A stretch of DNA of 63,912 nucleotides, the filler included, from Craspedostauros australis (lineage: Eukaryota): the NCBI GenBank assembly GCA_030167865.1. It is 19 parts of 19 records of this genome, joined end to end, with 100 filler letters (N's around TTAATTAATTAA, not from the genome) between each part and the next. Parts side by side here need not be neighbours in the genome. Positions count along the whole stretch, not along the records: positions 43,480 to 48,441 come from JALAGF010001851.1; positions 48,542 to 50,670 come from JALAGF010001852.1; positions 50,771 to 57,808 come from JALAGF010001853.1; 16 more parts are not named here. One strand, 5' to 3'. Position 1 is the stretch's first letter, and every line of letters starts with the position of its first letter. Shown one piece after another: positions 6,206 to 63,912 of this stretch. The notes under the pieces are model-generated. The model did not search any database. It was not told the DNA's origin and was given only the letters and a program-made list of their open reading frames with translations. Made by a program: the position numbers and the translations under genes.

Positions 6206-6289
6206 ACCGTCCAAGTGCGTATGAGAGAATAGCGGGTGAACGATGCACATATACACGTACATTTCGACATATACTCACATGTACATCTC
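6206..6289 (+). repeat. ~85-bp terminal-inverted-repeat-like sequence (A|CCGTCCAAGTGCG...), third copy of the repeat at 31948-32036 and 33762-33845
   Basis: Near-identical to 31947-32030. Similarity stops after CATGTACATCTC. Confidence 0.8.
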
Positions 6290-22285: not shown

Positions 22286-22385
22286 AGAGTAGAGTAGAGT
22301 GGAGCAGAGTATGATAGTAGTAGATGAGAGTGGAGTAGAGCAGAGTAGAGTAGTATGGTATGATAGATGAGAGTGGAGTGGAGCA
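22286..22385 (+). repeat. Degenerate (GAGTA/GAGTG)n pentanucleotide microsatellite
   Basis: agagtagagtagagtggagcagagta...agagtggagtagagcagagtagagtag visible directly. Confidence 0.75.
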
Positions 22386-26271: not shown

Positions 26272-27033
26272 TGTTGTTACAATACCATCTGCATTAAATT
26301 AGACGAGTATGTAGAGTACAATTGCAAGACGCCTTGTCGTTGTGCGCTATGTAGTGTGCATGTGCGAGATTAGTCGTACACACGAGCTGCTGGACTCTGC
26401 TCTAGTTCGTGGAGCATAGTTTGGTTGAGGAGTCAATCTCGCGTTGCCGACAGTTGCCTTCACAACGCGTTGGGCATGGATGAGATGCTGGCTGTCGGAG
26501 GGCCGATTTTGGCTGGGTTGGCCCAACGCCGAAGAATTATCCCGAACGGCGAATGACCACGTTTTTGTCGAGTGAACAAACCGCGCTTCTTGTGTCCAAA
26601 AGGGCGGATCTCGCCGTTTCCCCGAAACCAGGTTGCTGATCGAGCGTACTTTGTGTCACACGAAGAGGCAAAAGCCTTTGGTGCAGGCGGTCATCCCGTG
26701 CACGTGCGCCTCCATCCCCTGTTTCTCCTCTTTCCCAATCAACCACAGGATCGCATTCCGACTGGCCGACACCAAATCACACCAAGAGGTACCACAACAC
26801 AGCACAACACAACACAACACAACACAATTGGCAACACACAACACAAAGCAAGACGCAAGAGTCCCCAGTTCTGCCAACGACGACGGCGGCGGACATCATT
26901 CTCATCACCTGCCAGCATTGTCCCTCACACGAGCAGCTCGTACATACTCATACCAATCCCATAGGTCATTCTGTTCGTGGCACCAACAAGCAGAAGCAGA
27001 CAATCGGGGCACAGACCTGCGAGCAGAGCCAAG

Positions 27034-30000: not shown

Positions 30001-30561
30001 CTGGAGCATCTGGAGGACGAGATCGATCACTGGAAATCCGTGAACTGCGAATTGGAGGACGAGCTGGCCTTGTGGAAGGATCGAACCGAGGTCTGGAAGG
30101 AGAGGGCATTCGATCATGGATTCGAATCCAAGGAAGTCAGCGACTTGGACAGTCTGGGCGAAGGCAGCAGAGACAGTGGCGATGACAGCATGTGCGGCGA
30201 GAAGGACTTCCTGAACACCTCGGTGAGCTCCGACATCAGCCAAGGCAGCGTGTCGCTCAGAAGCAGCAAGACGAATACGAACACGAACACGAACACGAAC
30301 ATGAACATGAATACGCACAGCAACGCCAACAGCGCCAACAGCAGCGTCAGGTCGTCAAGATCCACGCGCACGGCCAATGGCGCCGCCGGCGGTAACCCGG
30401 AATCACCTGGCGTTAGTAGCATGCGGGGTGGCCACGCCTTGGCCAACATCTGGAACGCTCTGACGGCGACGCCCAAGCGGCACCAGAAACAGCAGCAACT
30501 GCAGCAGCAGCAGGCCATGGGAATACCGTACACCAGGAGCCTCGACGAGGATGAGGATTAA
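27034..30561 (+). CDS. Disordered N-terminus plus long coiled-coil protein (paralog of the preceding gene)
   Basis: ~1175-aa ORF from ATG 27034 with the same architecture. Contains EDEIDHWKSVNCELEDEL and LANIWNALTATP. Confidence 0.85.
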   Translation: MGEEETTTTAKKKKTQRRSVFGALKRQGSSGDQDDQSKDDDLEDRLDDAYAYEDASHDSDGGIPPHIDAKHSKNSNTTTSSSNDDDVDNVDNDKDDDNDDDDIFQKFAAGGHYTNAMPPDQPQERGRARGRRPSFQSMLSGVSLGRNERHGDDGRSRSRSRSMSVTRVLKKLIPGRRKSKDGKKDKFKEKKAAKEKEKPKDKDKKKTSGKAKDKAKSRSKSKDSGLTTDDDDLEDKDPDCGYEYDQDLNNSPSGGSAKAPKKLKKIGKKNKSKNNKHSDSASVGSISLGAASYHHDGTGAPRKRKKGKRRKGSKSMHQRSVSINNDSNNTSLSSLQFTNDNISVRSVRSDISDLQSPPMRRKRKSKVASRRSSNASQRSNPINDVEADQERAKATLERRVKAMQHGKPPLTPKRSEMSKTDSSSHGVGSSSSDRSDEQDQQRNEQQQKEDDQNDQSQQPASVNTINAQLVQKQEADIELLQHALHDATSKMIDQAEQLETEKHQHQQVAQSYDDAKQQLARVTQQLEAAQLEQDDTRVKSLERDLEAQRDTIASLQDNLRHANEEAQRAETQRAREDSQPEELLQHQAQQDEIAQQKEQEMQQRLAKLEERERNVKEQEEELRARNTALEKLQDLETSLQGRNEKVEEMEAAQRTQQEQMSKEMDQLRTQLDSSKALVTELQTQAEETEQRQRMQSDEAEAAREAKLQELLLKQKQTEQTHAEQASNLIELQLLNEEMDQELQILKRERKELVSQQDQEIQKMELQFAKDRTRMDEETSLLKEELVGQITELKEERTQLEEKLHDAERKHQEEMAKKTDEISELQKTTDELKASLEDGRKDDDEYINDLLQEIESLKKSNDSIPGIREELEEIIIELENKEALVLDLQKEVADLNDDLDKEIERSEEAVKAANADRDPESQEFLELEEELAKVRELRKIEQQEAEMQLQNKTATIVLLQDQLTEITAKAKKDAGRTAKERVANGNSKARLEHLEDEIDHWKSVNCELEDELALWKDRTEVWKERAFDHGFESKEVSDLDSLGEGSRDSGDDSMCGEKDFLNTSVSSDISQGSVSLRSSKTNTNTNTNTNMNMNTHSNANSANSSVRSSRSTRTANGAAGGNPESPGVSSMRGGHALANIWNALTATPKRHQKQQQLQQQQAMGIPYTRSLDEDED

Positions 30562-31236
30562 CTCGCCAAAGCAAGAGCGCTCCGAGAGAGTACTGCACGA
30601 GCCATTCGTTCGGTACCGTACATGGTGTGATTACAAGTATTTAATAATATAATCCACGTACTCGTAGAATGTTATCATCACATCCATAGCTCGTAGCGCA
30701 GACTGAACCCTCTCTTGAACGGTGCTTTGCTCTCTCCATAGTCCCTCCCTGTCTCTCTGGAGAGAGAGGGTATTTGGTTGCGTGTCACTTGTGTAGGTAC
30801 ACGTGGTAGTATTGTTGGAATGGTTGGGGGAGGCTACAAATACGAGCTAGAGAGAGAGACAGTCCGACGTCTTGATGCTTGACCGGTTCGAGTGAAAGTC
30901 TTCGAGAGGTTGAGCCATCCGAATCAAAAAGATGACAAGAACACAGAAACGAGGATGTCGTCTGATGCGGCGGACCAACAATGCTGTCCCACAGACCACG
31001 AGTCGCTGCCGACGCTCAACTCAACCATGGCACTGCCACAACAACATTGCACACATCATCTTTCCTCTCCCACCCAAGCGAGAGAGAGAGAGTCGGTGTT
31101 GCTGCAACAGTGCAGTGGCAGTCCAACAGAGTATGCACAGAGGAGAGTAAGATAGAGTGATCCAATTCTCTGCGTGCATCCAGCAACCTTCCCACCCAAG
31201 GTTCAACAACAAGAACATCACCCGAAGCAACATGAG

Positions 31237-31933
31237 TGTTGGCAAGTTTCGTGATTGGTAACCTACGATCGTGGAAGATGGTGTTGGTTGATAGTCGTTC
31301 GTTTGCTATTTCATTACATTGGCTACTCCAATCCTCTCGGTGTATGCCCATTCTCTTGCATGATGCTCTCGGTGCTTCAATCTGTTTTGTAGATTCAGTC
31401 TCCGACTATGAGTCAGCGTGCGAGATGCTCTCTTGCTGCTCTTCGTATTCTCTCTCTGTCTCTCACCATCGTGTGCTTGTGCTACACGATACTCCGTGTT
31501 TGATGCGTACTCCGCATTTGACACTCCGTTCAGTCAATACTGGCTCCTACTCCATGAGTACTTACCATTTGAAGTTCACCTTCAGTATCCATGATCCTGA
31601 TGTCCTTCGGTCATCGGATCTTCACCTCCTGCTCTGACTTGGAGACAGATGTCAACGTGGTGACACGATGACATCCTGTCAACGTCAGTAGGCGTCCTTC
31701 TGCTCTCCAGATGTCACGTTCCATTGGTGATGCAGTAGTCTGTCAGATGATATCGTCATCTGAGGTTTAGTTGGGAAGTACCTCGAGATTCTCTTGGTAC
31801 CATTGATGCATGGACGGACGATCTTCCAATTCTCTCAGAAATCGTTATTTGCAAATTTCCTCCAGAAATCTTGCCCCTTTTCGTGTGTTCCGTTTCCCCT
31901 GTAATTCTGACGAATCACATTATACTATCGACA
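31237..31933. mobile_element. Probable LTR (TGTTGG...TCGACA), same family as 7905-8332; right boundary tentative
   Basis: Shared TG-initiated boundary with the 7905 copy. Candidate end ACTATCGACA is an imperfect inverted match. No target-site duplication found. Confidence 0.6.
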
Positions 31934-32493
31934 CGAATGTAGTTATACCGTCAAAGTGCGTATGAGAGAATAAGGGGTGAACGATGCACATATACTTGTA
32001 CATCTCGACATATACTCACATGTACATCTCGACACACGTGTACGAGTATGCATGAAGCATGGTTCATGAGAAATGGGGCCGCGGTGGGTGTTCGGACTTG
32101 GGCAGGATCTATCTGGACCATGCACAACAATGCCACAAGTCTGCAGCACTGCACAGGGTACTACTCCATGGGTACGTATATCCGCATGCTGCAGGCAAGA
32201 TGGCAGTGCCAAACAAAGCTACTGTGGAGACGCTGTTCTGCTTGCTGTTGTGACGAAAACAGTCATGCGTGTGTACTATACTCATGCTCAGTGGAGTATT
32301 GGTACATACGCGGGTGAGTACTCTGTGAACCTGTGTACGTCCAGAGAGCGTTTGCATTGGGGCGGGCAATTGGTGATGTGTGCGAATCTACGGGGTTCAT
32401 TCTATGTCCATTAGTTAGGATTCGGGCGTAGGCGTCGCGAATCGGTGGAGAATGCCTCGTGAATCTGCCGGCTTCGGGATAACCGTGTGATGC

Positions 32494-33096
32494 AGTTCAA
32501 GAGAGGTGTACTAATTGAAGAGTTATAACTTGTAACGATGAGGAGTAGAGTGCATTGTAGCTAATCCTTGTCTGTTTATTATGAGTTAGCTTGTAGTGTT
32601 AGTAGGGTGAAGAAACGATGCCACACAACTTGGCGAGACCCTGCACTGATGTACTTGGTTCAGTGCTCAAGGGTAGATGATCATAACAGTGCCTTGCTCT
32701 CCGCACATGTAGATACACTGTAGTATAGGCCATGACGCATGTTGGTAACAGTCATGAAGCAGTGGCTGTGGTTGGAGCTGACCCTCGGGTTCCATTGCTT
32801 GAGTTGAAGCAAGTTGGATACACACGTTGAGACTACGACAGTGATGCAGTAGTCGTCAGCATGAAGGGAATCGAGGTATGTTGTAGTAAGAGGATCTGAG
32901 GAGTATAGTTCCCAAGGTGAGGTGTGAGTCAGGTTGGTCATACTTGAGTCATGATGGATTCGTGAATGGAGGAGAGAAAGGAGGAGAAAAGATTTGGTGG
33001 TCGATCAAGTCGGAGGATTTCGCGCCAAAACGAGAATTTCTCCCATCTGGTTGATACCGTGTTCGGGAATAGTCTGTCCCTCATTGAATCTCAACT
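32494..33096 (-). mobile_element. Putative 3' LTR of the copia fragment, preceded by polypurine tract GAGAGGGAG (33105-33097)
   Basis: The PPT follows the RNase H ORF on the minus strand. The sequence then starts AGTTGAGA, and a candidate end TCTTGAACT lies at 32502-32494. The left boundary is inferred. Confidence 0.5.
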
Positions 33097-33762
33097 CTCC
33101 CTCTCAGTGTTGGGTCGTGATTGGAGTTGTGGTATCGATGAAAACTTCATCCTTCGTTGTTGTTTGTTGTTGTTTGGGTATTTCCAACCCATGATCTTGG
33201 ACCGCAAGTACTCGAAGACCACGATGGATAGTCCCTTCGTAAAGATGTCGGCGAGTTGCTCCGGCGTAGAGATGTGTTGAATGCAGATGAAGCCTGCCTT
33301 GACCCAGTACCAAAAGAAGTGCCACTTGGTCAAGAAGTGTTTGGTGCGTGCTGTCGGCTGATGATTGGTGGCGAGGGAAATGCAGGCTTGGTTGTCCTCG
33401 AAGACAGTGCACTGGAGGTTGGTGTGCAGCGGCATGTTGGTGCTTGCGTTTTCGATCACTTGGCGGATGAGCTGCTGAATTGGGATCAATGTTCGCATTG
33501 CCAGAGAAAGAGCGGCGTATTCAGACTCCATCGTGGACAGTGCGATCTCAGTTTGAAGCTTTGATTTCCAAATGAGAGGACATCCGCCAAGTGTGATGAG
33601 ATACCCCGTGCGTGACTTGACCGACACAGGGTCTTTGCTGTCCTCTCGTTGGTAGAGGCCTGCGAAGTCAGCGTCCACGTAGCACTTGAGATTGAGTTGC
33701 CCAGTGGGGCGAACGATGGTGCCCATGGTTTCCGTGTGCTTGAGATAGCGCATGATGCGCTT
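33091..33762 (-). mobile_element. Ty1/copia RT C-terminus and RNase H fragment
   Basis: KRIMRYLK...YVDADFAG...SRTGY...WKSKLQTEIALSTMESEY...FEDNQAC...RTKH...QLADIFTKGL...KIMGW. Confidence 0.95.
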
Positions 33763-33945
33763 GTGTCGAGATGTACATGTGAGTATACGTCAAGATGTAC
33801 GTGTATATGTGCATCGTTCACCCGCTATTCTCTCATACGCACTTGNNNNNNNNNNNNNNNNNNNNNNNNNNNNNNNNNNNNNNNNNNNNTTAATTAATTA
33901 ANNNNNNNNNNNNNNNNNNNNNNNNNNNNNNNNNNNNNNNNNNNN

Positions 33946-43479: not shown

Positions 43480-44560
43480 CAACACAACCCACCACCACAA
43501 CACAACCCACCACAATGAACACGACGCACCACAACACAACCCACCACAATCGCCACCATCACCACGACGCACCACAACGAACACGACGCACCACAACACA
43601 ACCCACTACAAGCACCACGATCACCACGACGCACCACAACACAACCCACCACTGTGATATTGTGTCCAGATGTCAGCACTGATTAGACCAGCGTAGGCAG
43701 TGGTGAGATCGTGAGCTCTGGTTTGGAGATAATTGTTATTGTTAGTTGTCAATTAGTTGGTTTGTCTGTTGGTTGGTGAGTTTGTTAGAACTCTTGGATT
43801 ATGAGATGAGGATGAGATGTTTTTCTGGACTGATTGCAAGTTGCAGGGTCAGCAGCATCTCTTCGTGTGAACGACCGTGATCATCATCTTCATTCAGTTT
43901 GCATTCGTCGTGATGCGCCGCGTTATCGGCCATGAGCATCATCGACATTCGGCTTGATTCAGTCGCGATGCGCCGTGGTATCGGCCATCAGCATCGTCGA
44001 CATTCTGTTCGTTTCTCTCGCACTGTCCTGTGTTATTCTGGTCTTGGTCTTGCATTGCGATTGTGCTCCGATATCGTATTCGGTATGGTTGATACTCCTC
44101 ATCCGATTCCACGGTTGATTCGGATGTGTTTTCTGTGTTTTTGTGTTTCGGACTCCCACACGATGGACATTGTTGAAATGTGGCGCGCAGTGATAACTTC
44201 GATTCGTAGATGTCTCCGTGATCAATCCTCCGTGATCGAAGAGTTGCTTCCGACACGGTCGGGGAATTCTCATGCCTCAATTTTTAGTCACTGGAATGAT
44301 CCCACAACCACGATCACCACGACCCAGCACAACACAACCCACCACGCTCACCACGACGCAACCACAACGCAACAGAACGCAACAGAACGCAACAGAACAC
44401 AACACATGACATGACCCACCACAACACACCATGGCGCAACACAACGCACCACGACACAACACACAATGTGACACAACACAACGCAACAGAACACAACACA
44501 ACGTGACGCAACACAACGTGATGAAACACAACACAAACAAACAAACACCTCACACCAACA
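43480..44560 (+). repeat. CA-rich minisatellite (CACCACAACACAACC / GAACACGACG units), split by a solo LTR
   Basis: Repeats at 43480-43652 and 44307-44560 use the same units and orientation as 57560-57808. Confidence 0.85.
43653..44306. mobile_element. Solo LTR, 654 bp, with 5-bp target-site duplication ACCAC
   Basis: ACCAC|TGTGATAT...ATCCCACA|ACCAC. TG...CA termini. Removing it restores the minisatellite phase (accac-gatcaccacgac). Confidence 0.82.
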
Positions 44561-44565
44561 CAGCA

Positions 44566-47054
44566 ATGGTGGGCTCTGATGTCCGCTTTTACAAAGATGG
44601 GCCTGATGCAGCTGCCTTGATGAAGGCACTAATCGATGACCCAACAAAATGGAACTGGGAGCCAGAACCTCTGCGTCTCCACCATTCATTTCTACGTAAG
44701 TATGATTACAAAAAAATTGTTCGGAGTCTACGTGACTTCAAACAAAGTTTGGTCAAAAAGAACTTGTTCCACAGTAAGTGCACATGTGGTTGAAGTGGTT
44801 CCGTGTTGATGTGTGTGCTGAAGTCTCTGTTCTCTGACCACCATGTGATCAAGCATCATTTGTGTACAACATCACCATTCCACCCAAGTCTCACCCCTTG
44901 CCTTTCTCTGTTTGTGGTACACACCAACATGTGTGGTTTGCACATTGCAAATGCAACAAAGTGGATGGCCAGCCCCATCAGAACTCTCAATCAAAGCTTG
45001 GAGCCAAGATCTGTCCACTTGACAACATGGACACCACAACATCCACCTCTGACAATCACAACCACAGCAACAACATCTCCAACACAGAAAAGAGAACTAA
45101 CAAGGAGCATTGTCACAGCCACACAGCAAGACTCAGAAGTCCACGCTGTCGCAACCACCAGAGGGCACTCAAGCACACCCCAGCTTCAACCCATGCTGCA
45201 GAGGATACTGACAGCAGCGTCCAGAGCATGTCGGATGCTTCAAGCCATGATTCCAATGTTGTGGACAGTGACTCCAACCACGATGTTGGATATGTTGAAT
45301 CAAAACTTCAGCCGGTGTTGCCCCCACACAAGGACCCACCCAGTGACCCCATCACTGCAAGGTTTCAACGTTTCTTCAACCTTCCAGAGGAGCAACATGT
45401 CACACAGTTCCACAAACTTCATTGAACCATAGAGGTGTTCCACACAACACAAGTGTGGAGGCCTCCTGGTGAGAAGTATTGGATGATTGGTGTGGACTTC
45501 CACATGCCAGCCTGCATCACCAAACGTGATGCGACTGTCACAATTGAGAGCCGAAAGGTTGGCAGCATACCCCGCATGTTCCTTGTCCTCATCTACAAAC
45601 CACCAGAGGCTTTTGGAAAAGATGGGAGTATTGTTGATGTCCTTGTGGAAAAGCTTGGCCATTCTTTCTCAGATGCCAGTCAGAAACGAGCTGCACACAT
45701 TCAGCAATTCTGAACTGAGGACTTTGGGCAATCCTTTCGGTCAGAAATGCTCGTTCCAATGCCATTCCCAATTGACACCATCTTTTGCGATATGCCATGC
45801 AGGAGGTTGGGAGGATGTGTGTGGCTTCGTCATGCAGTGGCAGACAACAAAGGCACCATGCATGACACACTCACCATCACCGTTCGACTCAAAGAAGCAA
45901 CAACAAGTGTTGGTGTGACCAGGCACTTCTCGACCTGCCATGGCCTTGGCTTCACAGACGTCAAAATGAGCATGCAGGTTGGAGATGTCCCTGCCACCAA
46001 TGGTGGTATCAACACACCAAGCAGCACGGATGCAAACAACATGGCATATGCAACCAGCAGCATGACGTCATCCAGGACATTGTTGGTCACACAGGAGAAG
46101 GCTATTCTTCCAGCACTTCCTACGTTTCAACAGCAGAAACAACTACCACCTGTTGTGGGCGATGCCATGTCTGTGATGACTGAAAACACAGAGCTTCTCC
46201 AAGATCACCTTGCTCTGCAGAAGGCACGAATTGCGAAAATGGAGTTGCAACTGGCTATCAAGATGGAAGTGAGGCGTGCAAAGAAGAGGGAGGCTACAGG
46301 AAATGTCAACAAAGCAAAGGCATTCAGAGACGTCCACCAAATTGATCAACCAACAAAGAAACTCTGCATCCGTGGAGATGAACAGGGGAGCAACAAGGCT
46401 AATGTGGACATCAATGTGCCTTTGGGATCTAACAGGTGGTGGGAACATGAGGAGATAACTCTGGATGCTGCCTTGATGGAAAAATCTGGACTACCAATTA
46501 ACAGAGGTGATCTGCACAGCAAAGAGAATGCTGTGACGATACATGTTCCAAAAGAGAGAGCAAACTATGGCTGTCAACAGGGTGCAGTCATTGGTGAAGG
46601 AGAGAACAGTGGCCGCATACTGCCAATGCCATCATCGACTGTGGCGAAAGCCATAGACAGTGCACATCATGCAGTGGATGATGTCGTGATGATGCCACCA
46701 CCACAATCACCTCCAAAGGTTGCACCGGGGGAAGCAGTTGTGGACAAAGTCTCAGAAGCAACTCACACCGACATGAACCCAGCAGCAGAAGATGCTACAA
46801 CACACCCAACAGACCCAGAAAAAGAGGCAACGCATCCGCAATCACCAGCAACCACAGCACAAACGCAAGCAGAAATGACGAAGGGAAATGAGACGACAGA
46901 AGAGCCGGAAGCGGTGCAACAGCAACAAAATCAGAATGAAGCCAACAGACGAAAGGGACCAGATGCCCAAGCCAATGTGGGGATGAGAACACGACGACGA
47001 GCAGCACAGGAGGAACGCAAAACTGATCGAGGACAACATGAAGACAACAACTGA
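44566..47054 (+). pseudogene. Accessory gene of the Harbinger-type element (unknown family), with an intron from 44774 and in-frame TGA at 45423-45425 and 45711-45713
   Basis: Exon 1 MVGSDVRFYKDGPDAAALMK...NLFH then GTAAGT. ORFs 44862, 45435 and 45747 share one frame, separated only by single TGA codons. Lies inside the right TIR. Confidence 0.65.
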
Positions 47055-47364
47055 TGAGGTGAAACTGGAGAGGAGAGTGTATGAGTATGCAAGTGAGACT
47101 AATGCACTAAGCTAACAAGAATGATAATGGTCATTGCTGCAGTCATCAACCTTGTGTTAGCCAATGCATGTGGTGACAGCTAGTCAGCAGGGAACGAGGA
47201 ATGTATGCTGTGATGTGGACCCAAAGAAATCAATCAGAGAAACCGGACATCGTTCAGAACACAGTGAACACAAAAAGAGACCAAAAAGGCACAGGGAGTT
47301 TTGGAGAATACACAAGAATTTCTCACCATTTGGTAGCAACCACCCATTTTCGCCATTCTTTTTG

Positions 47365-47406
47365 CTGCGTCGTAATGTGACAAAAATCGTGATTTCCCTT
47401 CCCCCC
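47365..47406 (-). repeat. Right TIR of the Harbinger-type element
   Basis: The reverse complement GGGGGGAAGGGAAATCACGATTTTTGTCACATTACGACGCAG matches 51508-51551. Followed by CTC. Confidence 0.8.
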
Positions 47407-47671
47407 CTCGGGACTACTTGTCGCAATTGATGTCATTCACACATCAATGCGAGTACCAGCGTACGCACAGCAAACGCAAATGCCAACCACACCATACGAC
47501 GACGTCACATCAGCACTGGTGTTTACGTACAACTCTTTGATGAACAGACGTGACCGTGGCCAAACGCGTCCAACCCAAGAATCCTTGGGACGGATGTGAG
47601 AACAAGGCAGTCCACGCCGCCAAATCCAACTACCATGGACTGTTACAATCCACGATACAACATGATGTGGT

Positions 47672-48441
47672 GTGATGCGGTGTGACATACCACCACAGGA
47701 ACCATTCGAAAGAGTGCTGCCTCGGGTTGAAGACAAGTCAATGTGCTCACAATTTCACAATCTCATCAACCACAACGCACAACCAACCACAACCAACCAA
47801 TTCAGGTCCCCCATGTCACAACGCACCCCAACCCATTTGGTCGCCAGGAACATGAGATCCCACCATCCTGGAATCACCCGGCACATGGTGCTTGTCGCAA
47901 GCATGGCCGCTTGCGTCTTCTGCATTCTCCAACTGAACTGCACCATGCTGAAGCAAGTGCTGCCACGCACGCAGTACTTGCGCAACATCTACGTCGTGTC
48001 TCCCAAAGAATACATCATGGTCGACGGCTCAGGCCAAGACATGCGGGCTCTCGCCAACAACTACGGAAACAAGGACGACGGGGAGAACTTCTTCGTCTCT
48101 CACAGCGATCCAATCTTCGCTGGCACTCCCATCTCCACTCGATCCTTCCAGACCGTGCGTAAGACGTACAGCACACAAAACGAAATCACCCAGCCGATGG
48201 CCGTCGTTCCCTTGCCAACTGGCTTCCAGGGCGAGTACAGACCGGAGACGCTCAAGGAATTCATCAAACTCGCAAGAACCATCTTTGACGATTCCGAGAT
48301 CGGCCGCTCCCTCCAAGCACGGTCGTCTCAGATTGAACAGCAGAACAACCTGCATGGCAGAGATTCGCCAGAGTACGCCATTGTGAGCATCTGTGTCGGA
48401 ATGGATCTGTGCGACATCTCCAAGCGCAACCACCAGCACTA
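47672..48441 (+). CDS. Hypothetical type II membrane protein, 5' part
   Basis: ORF open to the contig end with hydrophobic segment MVLVASMAACVFCILQL and C-ending codon bias. True start uncertain. Confidence 0.45.
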
Positions 48442-48541
48442 NNNNNNNNNNNNNNNNNNNNNNNNNNNNNNNNNNNNNNNNNNNNTTAATTAATTAANNN
48501 NNNNNNNNNNNNNNNNNNNNNNNNNNNNNNNNNNNNNNNNN

Positions 48542-49435
48542 ACAAGCAAGCCCACTTCGGCACCTACAGTTGGAAGCAACTCGAATGGCTGTGCATCCAA
48601 TGAGTCCATGGTCCGCGTACAAATACTGACAGATAACTACGGATCCGAAACCACCTGGGAGCTGAAGAATGGAGACAGCGTCCTCCTCCAAGATGGCCCG
48701 TTTACCGACGACACCATCCAGGTCCACACCAAGGAGATGTGCGTCTCCGAGTCTGCCTGCTTGAGCATGACGATTTCTGACTCATTCGGTGACGGCATCT
48801 GCTGCAGTGAAGGTTCGGGATCATACAAGATCTTCGTCGATGGCGTCGAGCAGAAGTCTGGAGGAGAATTCGAATCATCCGAGACGACCCCGATCGGAAA
48901 TTGTCAGGGCCCGGAACCAACGACTGCTCCGGTGACTCCGCCCACAGCATCCCCGGTGACTCCGCCCACAGCATCCCCGGTGACTCCGCCCACGGCGTCC
49001 CCAGTCAGCAGTGGAGGCGGAAACAACTCATGCCCAACCGGACAGACCCCGGTCCAGATCACTCTCAAGACTGACAACTTCGGCGACGAGACCCTGATCA
49101 ACTTGAAGCAGGATGGGGAGGACGTCTATTTGAATTCTGTCTTCGAGAACGGCATAGAGCTGATCATTGACGAGTGCGTCAACAACGGGGCCTGCCTCGA
49201 GTTCATCATCGAGGATTCGTACGGCGATGGTATCTGCTGCAGCGAGGGCCAAGGCTCTTACACCGTCACCATGGGCGGAGCCGTCGTAGCGTCCGGAGGG
49301 GAGTTCGATTCGGTCGAGACCTCCACCTTCGGGCAGTGTGGCACCCGAAGGGGGCTACGAGCCAACGGCAGTAGGCAGAAAGCCAAGCCAGCACGCAAAG
49401 AGAAGAAGAGAGCGACCAAGCCACGCAATGCATAG
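48542..49435 (+). CDS. C-terminal part of a secreted protein with two DS(F/Y)GDGICC repeat domains and a (PVTPPTAS)3 linker
   Basis: TDNYGSETTW...ISDSFGDGICCSEGSGSY...GGEF and TDNFGDET...IEDSYGDGICCSEGQGSY...GGEF. 24-bp tandem repeat at ~48930-49005. Confidence 0.85.
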   Translation, partial: TSKPTSAPTVGSNSNGCASNESMVRVQILTDNYGSETTWELKNGDSVLLQDGPFTDDTIQVHTKEMCVSESACLSMTISDSFGDGICCSEGSGSYKIFVDGVEQKSGGEFESSETTPIGNCQGPEPTTAPVTPPTASPVTPPTASPVTPPTASPVSSGGGNNSCPTGQTPVQITLKTDNFGDETLINLKQDGEDVYLNSVFENGIELIIDECVNNGACLEFIIEDSYGDGICCSEGQGSYTVTMGGAVVASGGEFDSVETSTFGQCGTRRGLRANGSRQKAKPARKEKKRATKPRNA

Positions 49436-49746
49436 ACCCCATGGCGGAGCCTGCCATAGAAAAAGGGGGACAGCTGTCACAGCAGGAACCAACATAAGTG
49501 CATCATATTATATAATATTCTGGTATATACTTACCATCCAAGATCAGCAATGAAACTGTACAACACCACTCGTCAGCTATGGTGAATAATAATACGTATT
49601 ACATGATGATTCAACTATGGTGCGCCGGTGGAAGGCTCCATGAATGGGCGCGCAAGCGAAAATCCGAAGCCGAATCAGTGCTCTGCGGTGTTTTGGGCCT
49701 GCAAAGCGTGGCAGATCGCAGTACATACGAGAATACACTCTCTGCT

Positions 49747-50442
49747 CTACTGCTTCTCACTACTGACAGCGCCACCGCCACCACCACTACCGCCGCCGGT
49801 CTCCGGAACATCCTTCTTCGACACAATGGTGGCATCCACAACCCCGGTTCCTGCAGGACCATCATCGTCCCATTGGTTCATCGTCGGAATGACAGTGGAC
49901 TGCACCGGTGGCTCCTCCTGCTGCGCCGGCGTTGATCGCGGCATGGGATTGAGAGTGCTCTGCAAGGCCGAGAGCTCTCCGTTGTCGTCCATCTTCTTCA
50001 GTTTGTCTTCCAAAAACGGCTGCAGCTTGGTGCCCAGCTCCTGCATGAGATCGGGTCGCTGCGCCATCGTCTCGCCTTTGTTCAATTGCGCTACGTACTC
50101 TTCCCACAATCCCGGCTGCAGCTCCTTGCATTCCTTCTCGAGCTGTTCGGCCGCGGCCGGGATGATGAAGCTGGCATAGAGAAAGGCGACGGCGGCGAAG
50201 AAGAAGATGAGGCCTGTGATGACGGCTGCCACGGTCTGCAGGACGCCGCCGGCTTGCTGCAGCATGGAGGGATCCGTCGCGGCGGCCACGACGGCATCGT
50301 CAGCGATGAGAAACGTCTCGGGCAGCAACGTGCCGGCGCCGAGCATGGTGGCAGTATTGCGCGTGTGGTGCATGCGCGGCGTTTGGAACGCGCTCGCGGA
50401 TGCTGCGAGGATCAGGAGGACGGAGATGGAATGGAAGGTCAT
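49747..50442 (-). CDS. Plastid-targeted single-TM hypothetical protein
   Basis: Signal peptide ending ASA|FQ (ASAFAP-type cleavage motif), transit-like region, then TM VAAVITGLIFFFAAVAFLYASFII. Confidence 0.8.
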   Translation of the reverse strand: MTFHSISVLLILAASASAFQTPRMHHTRNTATMLGAGTLLPETFLIADDAVVAAATDPSMLQQAGGVLQTVAAVITGLIFFFAAVAFLYASFIIPAAAEQLEKECKELQPGLWEEYVAQLNKGETMAQRPDLMQELGTKLQPFLEDKLKKMDDNGELSALQSTLNPMPRSTPAQQEEPPVQSTVIPTMNQWDDDGPAGTGVVDATIVSKKDVPETGGGSGGGGGAVSSEKQ

Positions 50443-51507
50443 GATGCTGGAGTAGTGGAAAGGGATGCGTTGTGTTGAATAGCGTTATGGTGCTTGGTGT
50501 TGTGCTTCTTGTGCTCTCTTGTTGTTGTGGAGACACTGCGCGCACCCAGCATTGCACAAGTGTGCGAAGAGAAGAAACATCAGCCACAGCGATGTCAAAC
50601 GGAGCAGGCAGCAGCAACCAACGCAACAGAGATGTGGAAAACGTGTTGATGTTCGTGTCTGTCAGATCCANNNNNNNNNNNNNNNNNNNNNNNNNNNNNN
50701 NNNNNNNNNNNNNNTTAATTAATTAANNNNNNNNNNNNNNNNNNNNNNNNNNNNNNNNNNNNNNNNNNNNACGTGGCGCAACTGGAGGCAACGCTGCCTA
50801 CTCCAACACTCAAGATGTGGCACGATGCAATGCCATGGTAATCAGATCTGTTGCAGAAGGTGATCGCTTCCGTCACTGGTGCCGATCTCGCCATGCAATC
50901 GTGTGTTTTGCCTGTATAATAGTAGAGCCATGTGGTGACCATTGGGTCGATCCCGTCAAGACAGAGGCGAAGCAATCTGTGACGGCGGGGCTTGTTTGCT
51001 CTCTGATCGTCATGCGCTGTTGTCATTGTTGCCAACATGAATTGCAGTGCTGCACTCTACTCTAATTGTATGCCCTCTCTTTCTCTCTCTCTTGTCTCTG
51101 TGAGTAGAGAGACCCATAGAGTATTCGCCACGTTCAACCATCGTATTATATCTTGCGCTATGCTCAATAGTATCATTATTCACGACTCGAACGCTGACCA
51201 CCAATAGCGAGACAGCATTGAATCGTGTTGGAGGAATCATGTGGTCGGAGTTGGCATGACAGAAAGGAGAATGAAGGTGGAACGAGACGAAAGGAAAGGT
51301 CCCCCATGTGTCCAAAGGCAGAGAGACTGAGACAAGGACACAGACACAGAGACGAAGAGGATGGAAGTGCGTCACCGCTCGCATGGGACGGCCAATAAAT
51401 GCGTTCTGCTCCTGCCTCCTTGATCGAGGATGGGCATCAGTGACTTCGATGTAACATTGTATCGTGCCAAATTGATCGATGGCAAGATCTGTTCCGCTCC
51501 TGCCCTC

Positions 51508-51551
51508 GGGGGGAGAGGGGAAATCACAATTTTTGTCACATTTGGACTCAG
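51508..51551 (+). repeat. Left TIR of the Harbinger-type element
   Basis: CTC|GGGGGGAGAGGGGAAATCACAATTTTTGTCACATTTGGACTCAG, an inverted match to 47365-47406. Confidence 0.8.
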
Positions 51552-52214
51552 AAAGAATAGAAAGTGGGTCCATTATCACTCTTTTCAAATTTTTCTTGCA
51601 CTTCGTTGGAGTCAGCCATTTCATAAGATTCGCTGTTTGTTTCCTCGTCGGCCTGCAACTTTCTTTCGTCTTTGGCCAGACCAACTTCGTTCGAAGCTCA
51701 CGCACACACTTGGCCTCCAGAACTGATGCCCCACCAATCTGCCATGCCAACAATGCAAGTTGTTTCTCTCTGCCTCCCCATGCATGCTGTGTACAGTTCT
51801 GTTTCTGTTTCTGTTGTTGTTGTGCTATATAGACTATAATCCATAACCATGTGCTGTACCTGCTTTTGTGCCATCTCATTTATTCCACACAAGTCATTGA
51901 GTGGGAACGGATAATGTTGGCAGGTCTTGCCTTGCCATTTGGTTGCGTACAATTGTGTATGCCACCGCATATGTAATGTACACACAGGAGACGCACGTGG
52001 TGGCACCAACTGCCATTGCAGTGACTCATGTGAGGCATGCCAGGTGTGCGTTCACGCCGGAGGATGTTGGGTGTACATGGTGTACGGCGCAGCCATGCTG
52101 AATGCTCTGGAGAAACTGTGGCCCCAGTATGCGGCTTGTCATGTGTCACAGCTAGCAGCCACTCTGCTAGAGTTGGCCCGGTTCCTTGTAGATGCTGAGC
52201 GAGCTTACACAGGG

Positions 52215-52580
52215 TGGGTACATGTGGTGCTGCAAGGCAGCTCTACCAAGGCTTAGCAATCGGCATCCATGCACTGCAACATGATGCCACGCTTGCTTTC
52301 TTCAAGGAGGAGGTGATTTTGGATCGACCATTGTTGTAATGGCCCATGGCATAGCTCATGAGTCAATCCAGCTTGCCAGTGGGAGGGTTTGTGCTGCTTC
52401 AATGTGTTACGAATCGAGGGTACAACTTTGTCAGGTTCCCCACGATTGCTGCACCTCCTAAAACAATATCAATCACAACTCGACTCTTACCGATCACACC
52501 TTTGACTCGTGTTGATCACACCCTTGCCTCAACGCAATTGTGACTGATCTCAATATTTCCAAGAAAAACAGCCTGTCCCC
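52215..52580 (-). pseudogene. Decayed third ORF remnant inside the Harbinger-type element
   Basis: After a candidate acceptor TTGCAG it reads GQAVFLGNIEISHNCVEARV*STRVKGVIGKSRVVIDIVLGGAAIVGNLTKLYPRFVTH*SSTNPPTGKLD*LMSYAMGHYNNGRSK. All three internal stops are TGA. Confidence 0.35.
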
Positions 52581-53920
52581 CTGCAATAGGAAAAATCATG
52601 ACAACCAGACAAACCAAGCAACGACGTCATAGGAGAAAGATTGATGACCAACAGGTATGAGATACGCCCCATCCGGAGAACGAAACACATGCCCTGTGCG
52701 GATTGGATCATTCATATGATTGGACAATCAGAATGATTCAGAAAAGCAGTCAACCTGACATCAATCACAAAACAGGTGCAATCAAGACATCACAGGATCA
52801 AAGGCAAAACCTGTGACAAGATAGATGCATGACAGCGGAATCGTGCCGCACGAACGTAGACAACAGTGAGAGTGAGGATATGCATGACGAACATGGCTGA
52901 TGAAAGGCTAAATGAGATGCACACAAAGACGCATGATGAAAGGACATGATGACAATGCATGAGTGCAGCAACAAAATGTGACGTTGCTGCGGAAGATGCC
53001 TGATGCGAAATCGAAATCGAAAGAGATAATGAGATTGAGCTCACAGTTTTAAAGCGGTACGATCTACGAACAGATTAGATTACTACTATCATAACCCTGG
53101 ATTTCCAACACGAAAGACCCGGCAGGGTTTCAACCGTGCTTTCTCCACTCCACCAACCGCGCAGTCTATATCAGGCCGTTCCTGCCCGCTCCTTGCCAAG
53201 CTTCCTTGACAAGGTCAATCGACATGTAGTTGCTTGCTTCTGACCGAGTGCTGCCTTCCTTCAAGATGTTGAGACCTTTAATAACGAGCTCGGCTCCCAT
53301 CTCCATGGACCTTGATGGTCGCATGTTGTGCCAGACTTGTTTGATGCAGGAGTCCAAAACTACCAGGCTATATGCATTGCTGTTGGTCTTATGTTGTACA
53401 AGCGGCTCCGGGGCGCTGCTCAAGTGGATTAGTCTCCGTGCCAGGCACAGCTGCAGGACGTCGTCTCGACGCCCTCCCATTGCCACTACACAAGATACAC
53501 GAGAAACCCAACAACACACTAGAGATTCCGTGCCCTCTGCCCGCGTGGCGGGCAGTTGCAAAGGGGCGGAGAAAAGCGCCATCGGCGCAGTCAATTAAAA
53601 GACTAATCATTGAGTTATTTATTTGTTTGTTGTACAAGCGGCTTCTTCTTGTTCATCCATGTGTTGTCAACAACACAATCATGAATGCAAATGAAGCGCT
53701 TTATGTCACTGTTGCTTCTCCTCTTCCTTGTCCTTTTTTACCTTCGGAGACCAGGATCGCTCCTCCAGTGTACCTTAGTTTGGCCTGAGATACGTTCTTG
53801 TTTGGTGCAGCCAACTGCATCATCTTTCCAGGAGTTGCAGTGACAAATAGATTGAAAAGTGGATGTTGTTGTTGCTATTCTAAAATGAAGTGGTTTATTG
53901 CATGTGGCTATTGTGTATTC

Positions 53921-54960
53921 CTACAGTTCCACCAGGGAATCCAACCAATCATCCATCTCTTGGATGGTCCGCATCGTTCGGGTGAGGTCAAACAGTGGAT
54001 TTGTATGTTTGAGTTCCAATTGTGTGATTGCGGCTACCGAGTACATTGCGTACTGGTACTTCTCCAGTGTGTGCCGCCATTTTTGCTTTAGGCACTTCCA
54101 GTTCTTGAACCTTTTGTGTACGGTTTCATGGCGTGCACGAATCACGCCATTGCATCGGGTGCGATCCAAGCAGCAGCTTTGCTCACCTCTGTACCCTCGG
54201 TCCGCAATAACCTGTTCATTGGGATCCAATGCATGTAGGAGCTTCTCTCAATAAATTTTGATGTCCAGCCACTCCCCACAAGGATACGGTCCATCCACCC
54301 ACACAAGGTGCCCAGTCGCAATGGAGACACAAGTTTCGTATCGGAGGCCCACAGCTTTGAATTTGTGGGAATACCAGCCTGGGTCATACAAAACAGGCTC
54401 CATGATGGGGAAGTCAGTGCCATCTACAGATGCCATTGTTGTAGTTCCTGGCGCACATCCCATTTTCCAATCTTCAAAACATATCTGGGATAGGATGAAC
54501 ACATGTGAACATTGGAAGAGAAAGAGAATGTGAGAGGTAAGTCATGCTGCTCATCAATTGCATTGTCTATGTTGCAGTCTGGATGTTGATGTTCCAAAGT
54601 TGTGCCACTTACAAGTTCACGGCTGAGGAGACCCAACGCACGAAGAATAATCCAGGTCCACTTCTGTACAGTTTTCACATCCTTTCCCATTCGTCCTGCC
54701 AGCACACCCCATGTTGGATATTGCTTGAGGAACATGAGAGCACACAACAGGTGATCCATAGTGGCATTCCAAGGCAGCAAGTCCTCCTCATTCAGTGCCT
54801 CCCATGTCATTGCAGCCACTTTTGTGTGGGTTCCAAAGTTGCTTCGGAAGCATGCTTGCACACCATACAATGGTTGAGTCTGGGGTCTAGTGTCAACTGC
54901 TCGTCCCAGAAGCTTCATTCCCTTGTGTGCAATGGCTGCTTTGGTTGTCTCAGTGGCCAT
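53921..54960 (-). mobile_element. PIF/Harbinger (DDE_Tnp_4-like) transposase, intron 54612-54485, in-frame TGA at 54250-54248
   Basis: FRSNFG...HLLCALMFLKQY...KW (HTH region). A GTAAGT...CAG phase-0 intron is followed by SVDGTDF...WYSHKF...GLRYE...VWVDGPYPCG...IADRGYRG...RARHETVHKRFKNW (DDE triad). Confidence 0.93.
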
Positions 54961-55164
54961 TTTCTTGTGTCTTGGTATGCCAAAAGGATGGAGGACAGAG
55001 TCATGGTATCCACAAGCACAACATCCAAATCGGCAGGAGAGAGAGATGAAAACAGTCAGGGCAAGTGCTACTAATATTGACTAGTACTGAACATAAAACA
55101 ACATGAACCATTCTGTGTGTTATTTGGCCGGCTATCTGTGTTGGTTTGGACTTGCACACAGAAA

Positions 55165-56490
55165 ACCGGCATACACAGACACTGAGGGAGATTGGACTGT
55201 CATGTCGAAAACCGCATGAACGATTTGCCTGTTCGATGTGGTTGATGCTGTGTCTGTCTCATCTTTTTTGCACTAGTACCACAAACCGTTGATGAGACAC
55301 AGCGCCGATCGTACTGCATGGTCAGACATGCAACCACACAAGTAGAATCGAACAGGCTGGATCACACCACACCGATAATGACTGGCATGCACAGGCGCAG
55401 AGGGAGATGGGACTGTCGTATCCAACACCGAATGAACGATTTGCATGTTCGATGTGCGTCTGTCTCGTCTTTTTTGCACTAGTACAACAAACCGTTGATG
55501 GAGCACAGCGCTGGTCGTACTACATGGTCAGACGCGCAACCACACAAGTACAATTGGACAGGCTGGGTCGTACCAAACCAAAAATGACCGGCATGCACAG
55601 GTGCTGACAGAGATTGGACTGCTGTATTGAACAGTGCACGAACGATTTGCCTGTTCGATGTGGTTGATGCTGTGTCTGTCTCATCTTTTTTGCACTAGTA
55701 CCACAAACCGTTGATGAGACACAGCGCCGATCGTACTGCATGGTCAGACATGCAACCACACAAGTAGAATCGAACAGGCTGGATCACACCAAATCAAAAA
55801 TGACCAGCGTGCACAGAGACACTGACGGAGATTGGACTGTCGTATCCAACACCGAATGAACGATTTGCATGTTCGATGTGCGTCTGTCTCGTCTTTTTTG
55901 CACTAGTACAACAAACCGTTGATGGAGCACAGCGCTGGTCGTACTACGTGGTCAGATACACAACCACACAAGTACAATCGAACAGGCTGGATCACACCAA
56001 ACCGAAAACGACCGGCATGCACAAACACGGAAGCAGATTGGACTGTTGTGTTGACACCGCATGAATGATTTGCCTGTTCGATGTGGTTGATGTTGTGTTT
56101 GTCCTTGTCTTTTTGCGCTAGTACAACAAACCGTTGATGTAACACAGCGCTGGTCGTACTACATGGTCAGACACGCAACCACACAAGTAGAATCGAACAG
56201 GCTGGATCACACCAAACCGAAAACGACCGGCATGCACAGACACTGAGGGAGGTTGAACTGTCATGTCGAAAACCGCATGAACGATTTGCCTGTTCGATGT
56301 GGTTGATGCTGTGTCTGTCTCGTCTTTTTTGCACTAGTACAACAAACGGTTGATGAGACACAGCGCCGATCGTACTGCATGGTCAGACATGCAACCACAC
56401 AAGTAGAATCGAACAGGCTGGATCACACCAAACCAAAAATGACCGGCATGCACAGGCGCAGAGGGAGATGGGACTGCTGTGTCGAACACT
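55165..56490 (+). repeat. Tandem array of ~6.2 units of 206-216 bp upstream of the transposase
   Basis: Unit starts at 55165, 55381, 55587, 55803, 56011, 56226 and 56442. Conserved TTTTTTGCACTAGTAC(A/C)ACAAAC, TGGTCAGA, CAACCACACAAGTA and CAGGCTGG. Confidence 0.95.
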
Positions 56491-57559
56491 ACAAGTGCCA
56501 TCTTCGACTGGGTATGCCGCACTTGGACCAGGGACATTCCTTTGTTCCTTTTTGCGTTCGGATTGTGGAACACGGACTTACTCATGTTGTCGCGTCTTGC
56601 GCTGTCTGGATCGAACCAGTGTTTCTCCTGTATTGCCTGGGGCGCATTGGCCCCACATGCTGGTCGGTGTGAACGCACATTGCAAAGTTGAACGGTTGGC
56701 GACATGAGGCGCCATGTACTGGGGATGTTGCTGTGGTGGTTGCAGTTTCAGACAGACACCTTCAGGAAAATTGGTAAAATCAACGATATTTGGGGATTTA
56801 TTAGCCCTTTGTCATCTAATTTTGGCGAATATTTGAAACTATTTTATGCCTTTGTGTCGATTGGGACATAAAAAACGTTATTCAGACTCAAATTTGTAGC
56901 GTTTTGTACGATTCGTGTCACTTTTGGAGATATCAGGGTCTTTTGGACGATTGTGTTGCGAATTAGAGGGAATGTGCTGAACCGTTGTTCGAACCTGTTC
57001 CTACGAGGGCGTATTTAACCAATGCAACCAAATGTCCCATCCTCCATGGTCTTTTCACGACATTCGGAAACTTCCACCACCTCTGTTTCGGAATGTGACA
57101 TTGCAACTCGCTCCTCCTCTATTCACGAGGTGGGATTTTGCCGCCCCAAGGAATTGTCCGATCCGGGATGGTCTTTTCACGACCTCGCAAGTCATCTACA
57201 ACCACTTGTGCGGAATGCGCTGTGGCATTTTCCTCCTTCTCAACTCGCGAGGGTGTGGTTCGCCCCTACAACTGACTGTCGCATCTTGCAGGGCCTTTCC
57301 ACTGCCTTGTGAGACCACAACCAATGACGATGGTTGTCACATGGCGACTCGGTTGCGCCAGGTTCTGTGCATGCACATGATCCGACAGAAAGGCATCCGC
57401 ATGGTGGCGGAGTACACGACCGTGCTGTTCGGTTGCAACACAAACAAAGGAGCCACAGCAGTGTTACAACACGACAACTCCAGTCGCAACATGCACGAAA
57501 ACGACCATACATCCGGCCCAAACGAGTCGACGATCTCACAAAAACAAAATCGCAAAACT

Positions 57560-57808
57560 CAGAACACAGCACAGCACAACACGACGCGAAGCAAAGCAAC
57601 GCACCACAACACGCTCACCACGACGCAACCACAACACAGCCCACCACAACGAACATGACGTACCACAACACAACCCACCACAACGAACACGACGCACCAC
57701 AACACAACCCACCACACTGAACATGACGCACCACAACGAACATGACGCACCACAACACAACCCACCACAACGAACACGACGCACCACAATGAACACGACC
57801 CACCACCA
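57560..57808 (+). repeat. CA-rich minisatellite running into the contig end
   Basis: CACCACAACGAACACGACGCACCACAACACAACC units, the same type as those starting contig 43480. Confidence 0.85.
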
Positions 57809-62804: not shown

Positions 62805-63912
62805 TCTGGATGGTGTGTCATGTGTAGACCTCGCTGGTGTATTCGGAGGGGTGACACCTGTCTCATCATTGGCTTCGTCGCCGGAGGGTAGGATTTCGTC
62901 ATCCTCATGATTGGATTCGCTCCGATCTTCCTCGTCATTCTGGATTAGTTGAGTCACTACTCCGTCGTCCTCATTATCCTCATCATCGCTGTCTGATAGG
63001 ATGTAGTATCTGTTGCTGTCAGCGAAAGATACTCTCTTTGCTTCCGATGTTTGACGCGTTGCCGTCCTTGGCGTTGCTCCCTTCCGTCCGATGGTTGTGA
63101 AGCCGTCTGCGTCCGTNNNNNNNNNNNNNNNNNNNNNNNNNNNNNNNNNNNNNNNNNNNNNNNNNNNNNNNNNNNNNNNNNNNNNNNNNNNNNNNNNNNN
63201 NNNNNNNNNGAGTGACTTGGTCGATGGTCTGTACATGTTGTAGACCCCTGATGCGTGTTGGTGTGCATATCCGATGAACACCATCTCTTCTCCTCTGTTC
63301 TTGAGCTTCGCGGTGATCCCGTCATAGGTAGTCTTCACAACACCCACTTCTCCAAACGTGCGAAGTGCATCCGCATATGGTGGATCGTTGCCAAAGAATT
63401 GTCGATGTGGTGACTCCTTCTGGTTCTTCGCTATGGTGATATTGGCGATGGCGGTGGCAGTGCTAGCAGCTGCTGCCCACAGGCCATGCCTATACTCTTC
63501 GTCGAGCTGTGCTCCGTTGAGCATGGAGCGAACCTTGGTGTAGAGGTACGCGAACTTGCGTTCTACTCTGCCGTTCTGTTGCGGCGTGTTCGATGCCGTG
63601 AATTCGAATTTCACGTTCAGTCCTGCATCGATGAGAATATCCTGCGTGGACTTGTTCTCTCCGCTGTTGTCACCTCGGAAGATGATCTGTTGGTCACCAG
63701 TCTGTGACTTGATCGTTTGAACGAACCGTTTGATGTACCCTGGTTGATCACTTTTGTTCTTGAGAAATAAACTCCAGCAGTGATCCGTGAAGTCGTCCAC
63801 GATCAGGGTCCAGTAGCGTTTATCTCCAAAGCTTATGTGTTTAGTGTAACTAATGTCAATGAAGAGTCGTTCGCCACGGCGAGTTGCTCTCGGAATGGTT
63901 GCCTTCGGAATA
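62805..63912 (-). mobile_element. Ty1/copia integrase core and C-terminal region; second copy of the family at 1-1311
   Basis: RLFIDIS...IVDDFTDHCWS...FRGDNSGEN...TPQQNGRVERKF...LWAAA. ~63430-62805 is a near-identical reverse complement of 1-620. Confidence 0.95.

Follow-up and report, generated by a model that had tools for sequence, protein, structure and literature searches.

Within a 63,912-base stretch of DNA from the diatom Craspedostauros australis, which we call the window, two contigs (43480-48441 and 50771-57808) appear to carry the two halves of one inactivated transposon of the PHIS superfamily, at least 10,228 bp long. We give this reading a probability of about 60%. In the left half (51508-57808), a terminal inverted repeat (TIR) and 2.35 kb of non-coding DNA would precede the minus-strand transposase gene, which is of DDE type and has two exons, and an array of 216-bp units and a minisatellite would follow it. 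The right half (43480-47406) would open with the minisatellite, here with a 654-bp insert, and continue through a plus-strand second gene to the other TIR. The assembly would have broken within the minisatellite, where the gap between the two contigs would then fall. In the live element, the transposase would have bound TIRs of ~45-65 bp, marked by a terminal G-run and a GGGAAATCAC box, excised the element and pasted it elsewhere, possibly with the aid of a protein from the second gene, which is transcribed divergently. This copy is dead, with one TGA in the transposase gene and two in the second gene. For annotation, both contigs are best treated as repeat DNA, that is, as a dead DNA transposon with two pseudogenes and not as host genes.

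The window is made of 19 separate sequences and 18 spacers, each N44-TTAATTAATTAA-N44. As these spacers stand between the sequences, 43480-48441, 48542-50670 and 50771-57808 are three independent contigs. The Pfam scan of the window covered 131 open reading frames (ORFs) of at least 60 amino acids each. A relative of the transposase is encoded by 304 metagenome stretches, and 80 metagenome loci were kept for the comparisons with related elements.

Terminal repeats and genes

Self-comparison of the contigs by blastn found an inverted match between 47342-47407 and 51569-51509 (80.3% identical over 66 columns, E 1.9e-9). When aligned from their ends, the two tips were identical at 36 of 42 bases. 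The imperfect inverted repeats of ~43 bp, which a previous sequence-only reading of this DNA had placed at 51508-51551 and 47365-47406, are therefore real, and extend to ~66 bp. The left TIR (51508-51569, plus strand) begins with GGGGGG, and the right TIR occupies 47342-47406 on the minus strand; each is identified by the blastn pair, a 24-nt core and the tip alignment, and the left one also by a box found in related elements. The core, GGGAAATCAC[A/G]ATTTTTGTCACAT, has one difference between the arms, and allowing up to three mismatches it occurs at just two sites of the window (0.00 matches expected from 100 shuffles). The G-rich tips point at each other across the intervening DNA, and the bodies of the element must therefore run rightward of 51508 and leftward of 47406, which bears out the exclusion of 47407-51507 from the element. 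The two arms sit on separate contigs, and their termini face outward from the genes, as a join of the two contigs demands.

A terminal G-run followed by a GG[G/T]AAA..C box at TIR positions ~11-24 was found in the window element and in the related elements L040, L025 and L061, that is, in four of the seven lineages aligned. This shared G-run and box tie the window TIRs to the clade of the transposase; the TIRs of L038, L052 and L008 carry neither. Written more fully, the box that recurs behind the G-run in these three relatives is GGnAAAT..C.AT, and it is plausible that 51508-51569 and 47342-47406 are the TIRs of the DDE_Tnp_4 transposase. No match to the TIR core and no relative of the transposase were found in viral contigs.

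The transposase gene (54960-53924, minus strand) lies on contig 50771-57808 and has two exons. Exon 1 (54613-54960, minus strand) comprises 116 codons from an ATG at 54960 and encodes an N-terminal helix-turn-helix (HTH)-like part, which is 24-47% identical to the N-termini of 13 relatives (tblastn) and gave a weak match to HTH_36 (E 0.085). It is followed by a phase 0 intron of 128 nt (54485-54612, minus strand; GTAAGT...CAG), and in the genes of the relatives the HTH and DDE parts are separated at this very position. Exon 2 (53924-54484, minus strand), which encodes the DDE catalytic domain, is in frame to a TAG after 53924 and contains a TGA at 54250-54248. With this TGA read as X, exon 2 matched Pfam DDE_Tnp_4 (PF13359) at 30.9 bits against a cut-off of 24.8 (E 2.5e-7), which supports a transposase of the PIF/Harbinger/IS5-like type, in line with the Harbinger-type element read earlier; single pieces of the transposase ORF, taken alone, were below the cut-off (16.6 bits). 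In an alignment with six relatives, the D, D and E columns (D21/D24, D74 and E120) were invariant, as were the VDGTDF, GP[FY]PCG..D and ARHE motifs that hold these residues. Compared by sequence with solved structures, the transposase profile produced only chance-level matches (coatomer and ribosomal protein).

Both transposase exons were matched by 13 relatives in tblastn searches; within the window these matches fell on contig 50771-57808 alone, save one weak match on contig 4957-6105. There, the N-terminal part of a transposase relative from Fragilaria crotonensis matched ~5201-5359 on the minus strand (E 0.002, 38% over 53 amino acids). Contig 4957-6105 is depleted in CpG, with a ratio of observed to expected CpG (CpG o/e) of 0.55, and may hold part of a further element from this superfamily.

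The second gene lies on contig 43480-48441 as a plus-strand frame of 738 codons (44838-47051), which contains two TGA stops (45423-45425 and 45711-45713) and closes with TGA TGA. The other five frames contain 14-30 stops over the same stretch, and 2000 shuffles averaged 35, the lowest having 18. With just two stops in 738 codons, the second gene thus is, or recently was, coding. In our gene model, a possible exon 1 of 69 codons (44566-44773, plus strand) would start from an ATG at 44566, end at a donor GTAAGT at 44774 and splice in frame to an acceptor at 44853, the main exon (44854-47057, plus strand) being part of the 738-codon frame. The long plus-strand frame claimed earlier as an accessory gene of ~800 amino acids is therefore present, as 738 codons broken by two TGA, plus the possible 69-codon exon. 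Pfam recognised no family in the second gene, nor was a Myb/SANT domain detected there, and an AlphaFold model of window 45300-46100 was unusable (pLDDT 33).

Both genes of the element are pseudogenes; the decay of the transposase gene had gone unnoticed in the sequence-only reading. The TGA at 54250-54248 falls in a column that is Arg in five of the six aligned relatives, and would most simply be explained by a CGA-to-TGA mutation. CpG o/e was 0.42 for the transposase gene and 0.38 for the main exon of the second gene, compared with 0.84 and 0.94 for the flanks and 0.84-1.14 for 12 of the 17 other contigs. In 500-bp bins, only the two gene bodies were depleted (0.24-0.48), with values of 0.8-1.1 in the central arrays. 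CpG depletion is an independent trait common to both contigs. Together with the three TGA codons it fits a putative methylation-linked C-to-T decay of CGA in both genes. If so, the equal CpG depletion and the three CGA-type TGA stops would make a small, testable case of a diatom DNA transposon decaying through methylation. That TGA functions as a stop codon in this DNA follows from its use at all three internal stops and in the pair that closes the second gene; recoding of TGA was ruled out by this closing pair and by the alignment of the transposase TGA with Arg.

One insertion or two

A CA-rich minisatellite connects the two contigs. It occupies 57599-57808, where it runs off the contig end, is found again in the same orientation at the start of the other contig (43480-43652, by its match to 57599-57808) and continues there, more diverged, at 44307-44536. 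Blastn aligned 43494-43652 with 57662-57806 (81% over 163 columns, same orientation), and 48 of the 191 20-mers of 57599-57808 recur in 43480-44540 and none elsewhere in the window. That the same minisatellite stands in the same orientation at the facing contig ends, as had been proposed, is thus confirmed by both alignment and shared words. The minisatellite is interrupted at 43653-44306 by a 654-bp insert that begins with TG, ends with CA and has ACCAC on both sides. The minisatellite itself contains ACCAC frequently, and no other copy of the insert was found within the window; that this candidate is a solo long terminal repeat (LTR) is a guess.

Several observations argue that the contigs belong together. 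Within the window, the minisatellite is common to just these two contig ends, and its orientation puts both TIRs outermost, where the opposite outcome had an even chance. CTC is found on both flanks, and CpG o/e is alike in the two genes. The proposed join also fits the architecture of the transposase clade, whose members have TIRs, a divergent second gene (10 of 12), in some cases central arrays, and lengths of 3.4-8.4 kb. In particular, a transposase and a second gene diverging from a repeat-rich centre, as the sequence-only reading had drawn them, is the arrangement in 10 of the 12 related loci in which a second gene was recognised.

The two CTC copies, at 51505-51507 and 47407-47409, were read directly from the sequence and are a candidate target-site duplication (TSD). 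The left copy abuts the G-run, and the length of the duplication is ambiguous between 2 and 8 bp. The left tip has a run of six G (51508-51513) and the right tip a run of seven C (47401-47407), and the 8-bp string CCCTCGGG is present at both junctions between element and flank, so that a TSD of 2 bp (TC), 3 bp (CTC) or more is equally readable. CTC is thus present at both outer flanks as claimed, and a firm 3-bp TSD is not supported.

A number of findings weigh against a single element. Four related elements have both flanks (L040, L038, L061 and L025) and sharp TIR ends; none of them shows a 3-bp TSD and one shows a 2-bp match. The CTC match in the window may be due to chance (1 in 64 at fixed ends, and more with slippage in the G-run), or may reflect a target preference common to different insertions; the transposase clade may also insert without a TSD, like the Spy group. 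No exact suffix-prefix overlap of at least 8 nt was found between any contig ends. No ORF spans the rebuilt empty site, the longest ORF over its junction having 174 codons, 165 of them in the left flank. The length of more than 10 kb exceeds that of the largest complete relative among the related loci (8,425 bp).

The second gene supplies the remaining points on that side. It had no homologue at E<=0.001 in 1.84 billion representatives and no match in a word-indexed search (405-1292 amino acids), and among the window ORFs the transposase alone matched the 80 related loci. A profile of the accessory gene of related elements (an iterated hidden Markov model, HMM, with five iterations) found this gene in 12 of the 80 related loci at E<1e-3, yet it found no window ORF. 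The read-through protein of the second gene scored -2.8 bits on this profile, under the best of 500 shuffles (11.6). A first pass of the profile against the window ORFs likewise gave no match (HMM E 3), and comparison of the N-domain of the accessory protein with the possible exon 1 was not significant (HMM E 33, hhalign P 0.057). Because it has neither a homologue nor a match to the accessory profile, we do not count the second gene as the accessory gene of the clade. It is an orphan, placed in the element by position, orientation and composition, not by homology. A likeness of its 'KYD', 'IVR' and 'LPF..DP' motifs to the accessory protein of the relatives was rejected, as the profile tests gave it no support.

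The strongest alternative, which we rate well below the single element but still take seriously, is that each contig is one end of a separate insertion, the two insertions belonging to one family or to sister families. On this reading, contig 50771-57808 would be the left part of an autonomous copy and contig 43480-48441 the right part of another, possibly with a different or captured gene; the minisatellite and the TIRs would be features of the family, and CTC a preferred target. The contig ends are without overlap or link, and assemblies break exactly at multicopy repeats. The second gene is unrelated to the accessory family of the clade, the TIR arms differ at 6 of 42 tip positions, and a TSD-like match between separate copies would be expected given a target preference. 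However, the 64-kb window contains one copy of each part, and one copy would accord with the orientation, with the CTC and with two genes depleted in CpG to the same degree. Moreover, TIR identity inside single related elements ranges from 78 to 98%, hence the 86% observed here is not unusual.

An improbable alternative is that 44566-47057 is a decayed gene of the host or of an unrelated repeat, lying beside a solitary TIR or an end of the kind seen in miniature inverted-repeat transposable elements (MITE-like), while the true transposon, built around the transposase, is shorter and has its right end at another place. The lack of any homologue, family or accessory-profile match for this frame speaks for this reading. 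Nevertheless, the frame is on the inner side of the TIR and has the same orientation relative to it as in 10 of 12 relatives, its CpG o/e (0.38) resembles that of the transposase gene (0.42) and not that of the flank (0.94), it contains two nonsense codons, as expected for a gene of a dead mobile element, and the minisatellite upstream of it is common to the transposase contig.

Finally, chance similarity of the inverted repeats and flanks, with no transposon end involved, can be set aside as wildly improbable: G-rich tips do make short matches easier, but the 24-nt core, in which the arms differ once and for which 0.00 matches were expected, the blastn E of 1.9e-9 and the box kept in the TIRs of related elements all speak against it.

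Related elements and the PHIS groups

Searches with the transposase of the window element identified relatives at E<=0.001 in 552 of 569 candidates (proteins of 102-328 amino acids) and in six more among longer proteins, with a best identity to the window transposase of 50-52%. The organism names attached to these relatives are of diatoms only (Seminavis robusta, Fragilaria crotonensis and Mayamaea pseudoterrestris). Members of the clade score near the Pfam cut-off, and some match DDE_Tnp_1 and, weakly, NCBIfam IS5 models, which places the clade at the IS5-like edge of the superfamily.

Of the 80 loci, six have the transposase enclosed by a TIR pair: L040 (3,413 bp), L061 (3,622 bp), L038 (4,550 bp), L025 (4,715 bp), L008 (8,425 bp) and L052 (at least 3,321 bp). 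The accessory gene, usually of two exons, was recognised in the 12 loci mentioned above, many other loci being too short to contain it. Its profile was built from L015, L061, L060, L038, L008, L016, L040, L025 and others. In 10 of the 12 loci the gene is on the strand opposite to the transposase and upstream of it, and in two (L021 and L005) it lies downstream in convergent orientation. L008, the largest complete relative, and L016 contain further conserved ORFs, and arrays of repeats were seen in L008, L016 and L003, located either between the genes or upstream of them.

The accessory gene of L040 (378-1253, minus strand) is intron-less and has homologues in L015, L060, L061, L038, L008, L016, L025, L021 and L005. 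AlphaFold modelled its protein with a mean pLDDT of 67.9, rising above 90 over residues 30-85, as a small helical N-domain followed by a beta-sandwich. The predicted sandwich matched alpha-crystallin/HSP20 and CS domains (Foldseek E 6.6e-4), with a VIA-align Z of 9.9 and a root-mean-square deviation (rmsd) of 2.1 over 82 residues; 17 chains had Z>=8. The N-domain, a small helical bundle in the model, gave a weak match to a Myb-like DNA-binding domain (8xas; Z 5.4, 56 residues, rmsd 2.4, rank 50). By sequence, no Myb family was found in the accessory protein and no Pfam family recognised the sandwich-bearing protein, and a comparison of the L040 protein with the ESM Atlas gave no usable match. 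Judging from the model, a helical N-domain joined to an alpha-crystallin/CS-like sandwich is an unusual partner for a Harbinger-like transposase.

We compared the window element with the groups of the PHIS superfamily through the group descriptions in Han et al. 2015 (PMC4482050), where the superfamily is split by TSD. The element belongs to the superfamily, having both a DDE_Tnp_4 domain with the D, D, E triad and TIRs; it fits none of the groups cleanly as they are defined there. Short TSDs (0-3 bp) also mark the superfamily; the candidate here is the CTC, ambiguous in length and read from a single copy whose ends lie on two contigs. PIF/Harbinger elements are described with the TSD TWA, a second ORF of Myb/SANT type and an average length of ~4.1 kb. 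The window element resembles them in its DDE_Tnp_4-type transposase, its N-terminal HTH-like part, its short TIRs starting with G, its two genes and a possible 3-bp duplication. It differs from this description in its flank, CTC (or TC) instead of TWA, in its proposed length of at least 10.2 kb, in its large internal arrays and in a transposase barely above the Pfam cut-off. In its second gene no Myb/SANT domain was detected.

Pangu elements, according to the same descriptions, have the TSD ANT, TIRs beginning with GG or AG and an average length of ~3.5 kb, are close to bacterial IS5, and count one heterokont and two algae among their hosts; their second ORF has no known motif according to the Results and a Myb/SANT domain according to the Discussion. 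The window element shares with this description a second ORF in which no motif was recognised, GG-type TIRs and closeness to IS5, seen for its clade in the weak IS5-family NCBIfam and DDE_Tnp_1 matches, but its flank is CTC or TC and not ANT, and its proposed length is far above ~3.5 kb. NuwaI elements are given there as animal-only, with the TSD CWG (3 bp flanked by G/C), GGG as the usual start of the TIRs and a second ORF of Myb/SANT type. The window TIRs also begin with GGG, and CTC differs from CTG in the last base alone; CTC is nevertheless not CWG, no Myb/SANT domain was detected in the second gene, and the host is a diatom. NuwaII is described by the TSD TNA, and Spy by the absence of a TSD. 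ISL2EU, described by the TSD AT, a THAP domain in the transposase and an ORF for a YqaJ exonuclease, differs from the window element, in which the 131 ORFs gave no THAP or YqaJ match and the flank is CTC and not AT.

The window element was also compared with the diatom and metagenome clade itself. Members such as L040, L061, L038, L025 and L008 have a transposase 38-52% identical to that of the window, with the signature VDGTDF...GP[FY]PCG...D...ARHE and the intron at the same place; the G-run and AAAT box (three relatives), the divergent second gene (10 of 12) and central arrays are shared as well. The clade differs in possessing a recognisable accessory family, which the second gene of the window does not match, in showing no clear TSD and in its lengths of 3.4-8.4 kb.

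According to the accounts we drew on, Harbinger-like elements have been known in diatoms since the first genomes (PMC2806351, PMC7466962), and the kind of element described here is therefore already known. The transposon itself is an ordinary kind of mobile DNA, and the more interesting by-product is a clade with an unusual accessory protein and an apparent lack of TSDs. This clade is very abundant, aquatic and diatom-associated, and in second gene, target-site behaviour and size range it is unlike the PHIS groups as published. A bolder proposal, which we regard as doubtful, is that it constitutes an uncharacterised, diatom-centred PHIS clade that departs from the Harbinger template. It would combine a GP[FY]PCG...D transposase, elements of up to 8-10 kb with extra genes and central arrays, the absence of an evident TSD (four of four relatives) and a partner gene whose product, with no recognisable Myb/SANT character, fuses a helical domain to an alpha-crystallin/CS-like sandwich, this gene evolving so fast, or being replaced so readily, that the window copy is an orphan. 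A full description of the clade would refine both transposon classification and repeat annotation in diatom genomes.

Other features of the window

Upstream of the transposase gene, the array noted earlier as having 210-bp units is real; it occupies 55165-56489 and consists of 6.2 copies of a 216-bp unit (82% matches). The DNA between the transposase gene and the left TIR (51570-53923, 2.35 kb) had been described as a decayed third ORF on the minus strand. No frame stands out there, all six containing 24-39 stops, and the stretch had no Pfam match above the cut-off and no match to the 80 related loci; the claim is dropped. The left TIR is crossed by an open frame of 289 codons on the minus strand (51013-51879), which starts inside the element and extends into the flank; for an ORF arising by chance it is long, and it showed no family and no homologue signal. 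The flanks outside the element are 50771-51504 on the left (CpG o/e 0.84, with no repeat match elsewhere in the window) and 47410-48441 on the right (CpG o/e 0.94, measured over 47407-48441).

The contig between the two halves, which is unrelated to them, encodes at 48542-49432 (plus strand) a protein with two Cys-rich 'DS[FY]GDGICCSEG.GSY' modules, for which a Pfam search gave no match. The modules are parted by a PVTPPTAS repeat, encoded by 3.1 copies of a 24-bp unit at 48929-49002.

Several of the remaining contigs carry repeats. Contig 1412-2550 has internal direct repeats and the lowest CpG o/e of all contigs (0.41), and is probably another methylated repeat. Contigs 1-1311 and 62805-63912, which are 94-95% identical in inverted orientation, probably represent one LTR-retrotransposon fragment, either as two copies or as two haplotypes; the former has a retroviral-polymerase SH3-like domain (Pfam PF25597, E 2.2e-8). 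Contigs 6206-8332 and 17787-33845 have in common a repeat that is 86% identical over 432 bp (7902-8330 and 31234-31665), and a repeat of ~80 bp occurs at 6206-6289, 31947-32036 and 33762-33845 (93-96%). These shared repeats are dispersed repeats or LTR-like sequences at contig ends. Contig 17787-33845 also contains, at 19599-21521 on the plus strand, a gene with an exostosin/GT47 glycosyltransferase domain (Pfam PF03016, E 1.4e-20), an ordinary gene of the host whose CpG shows no departure from expectation.

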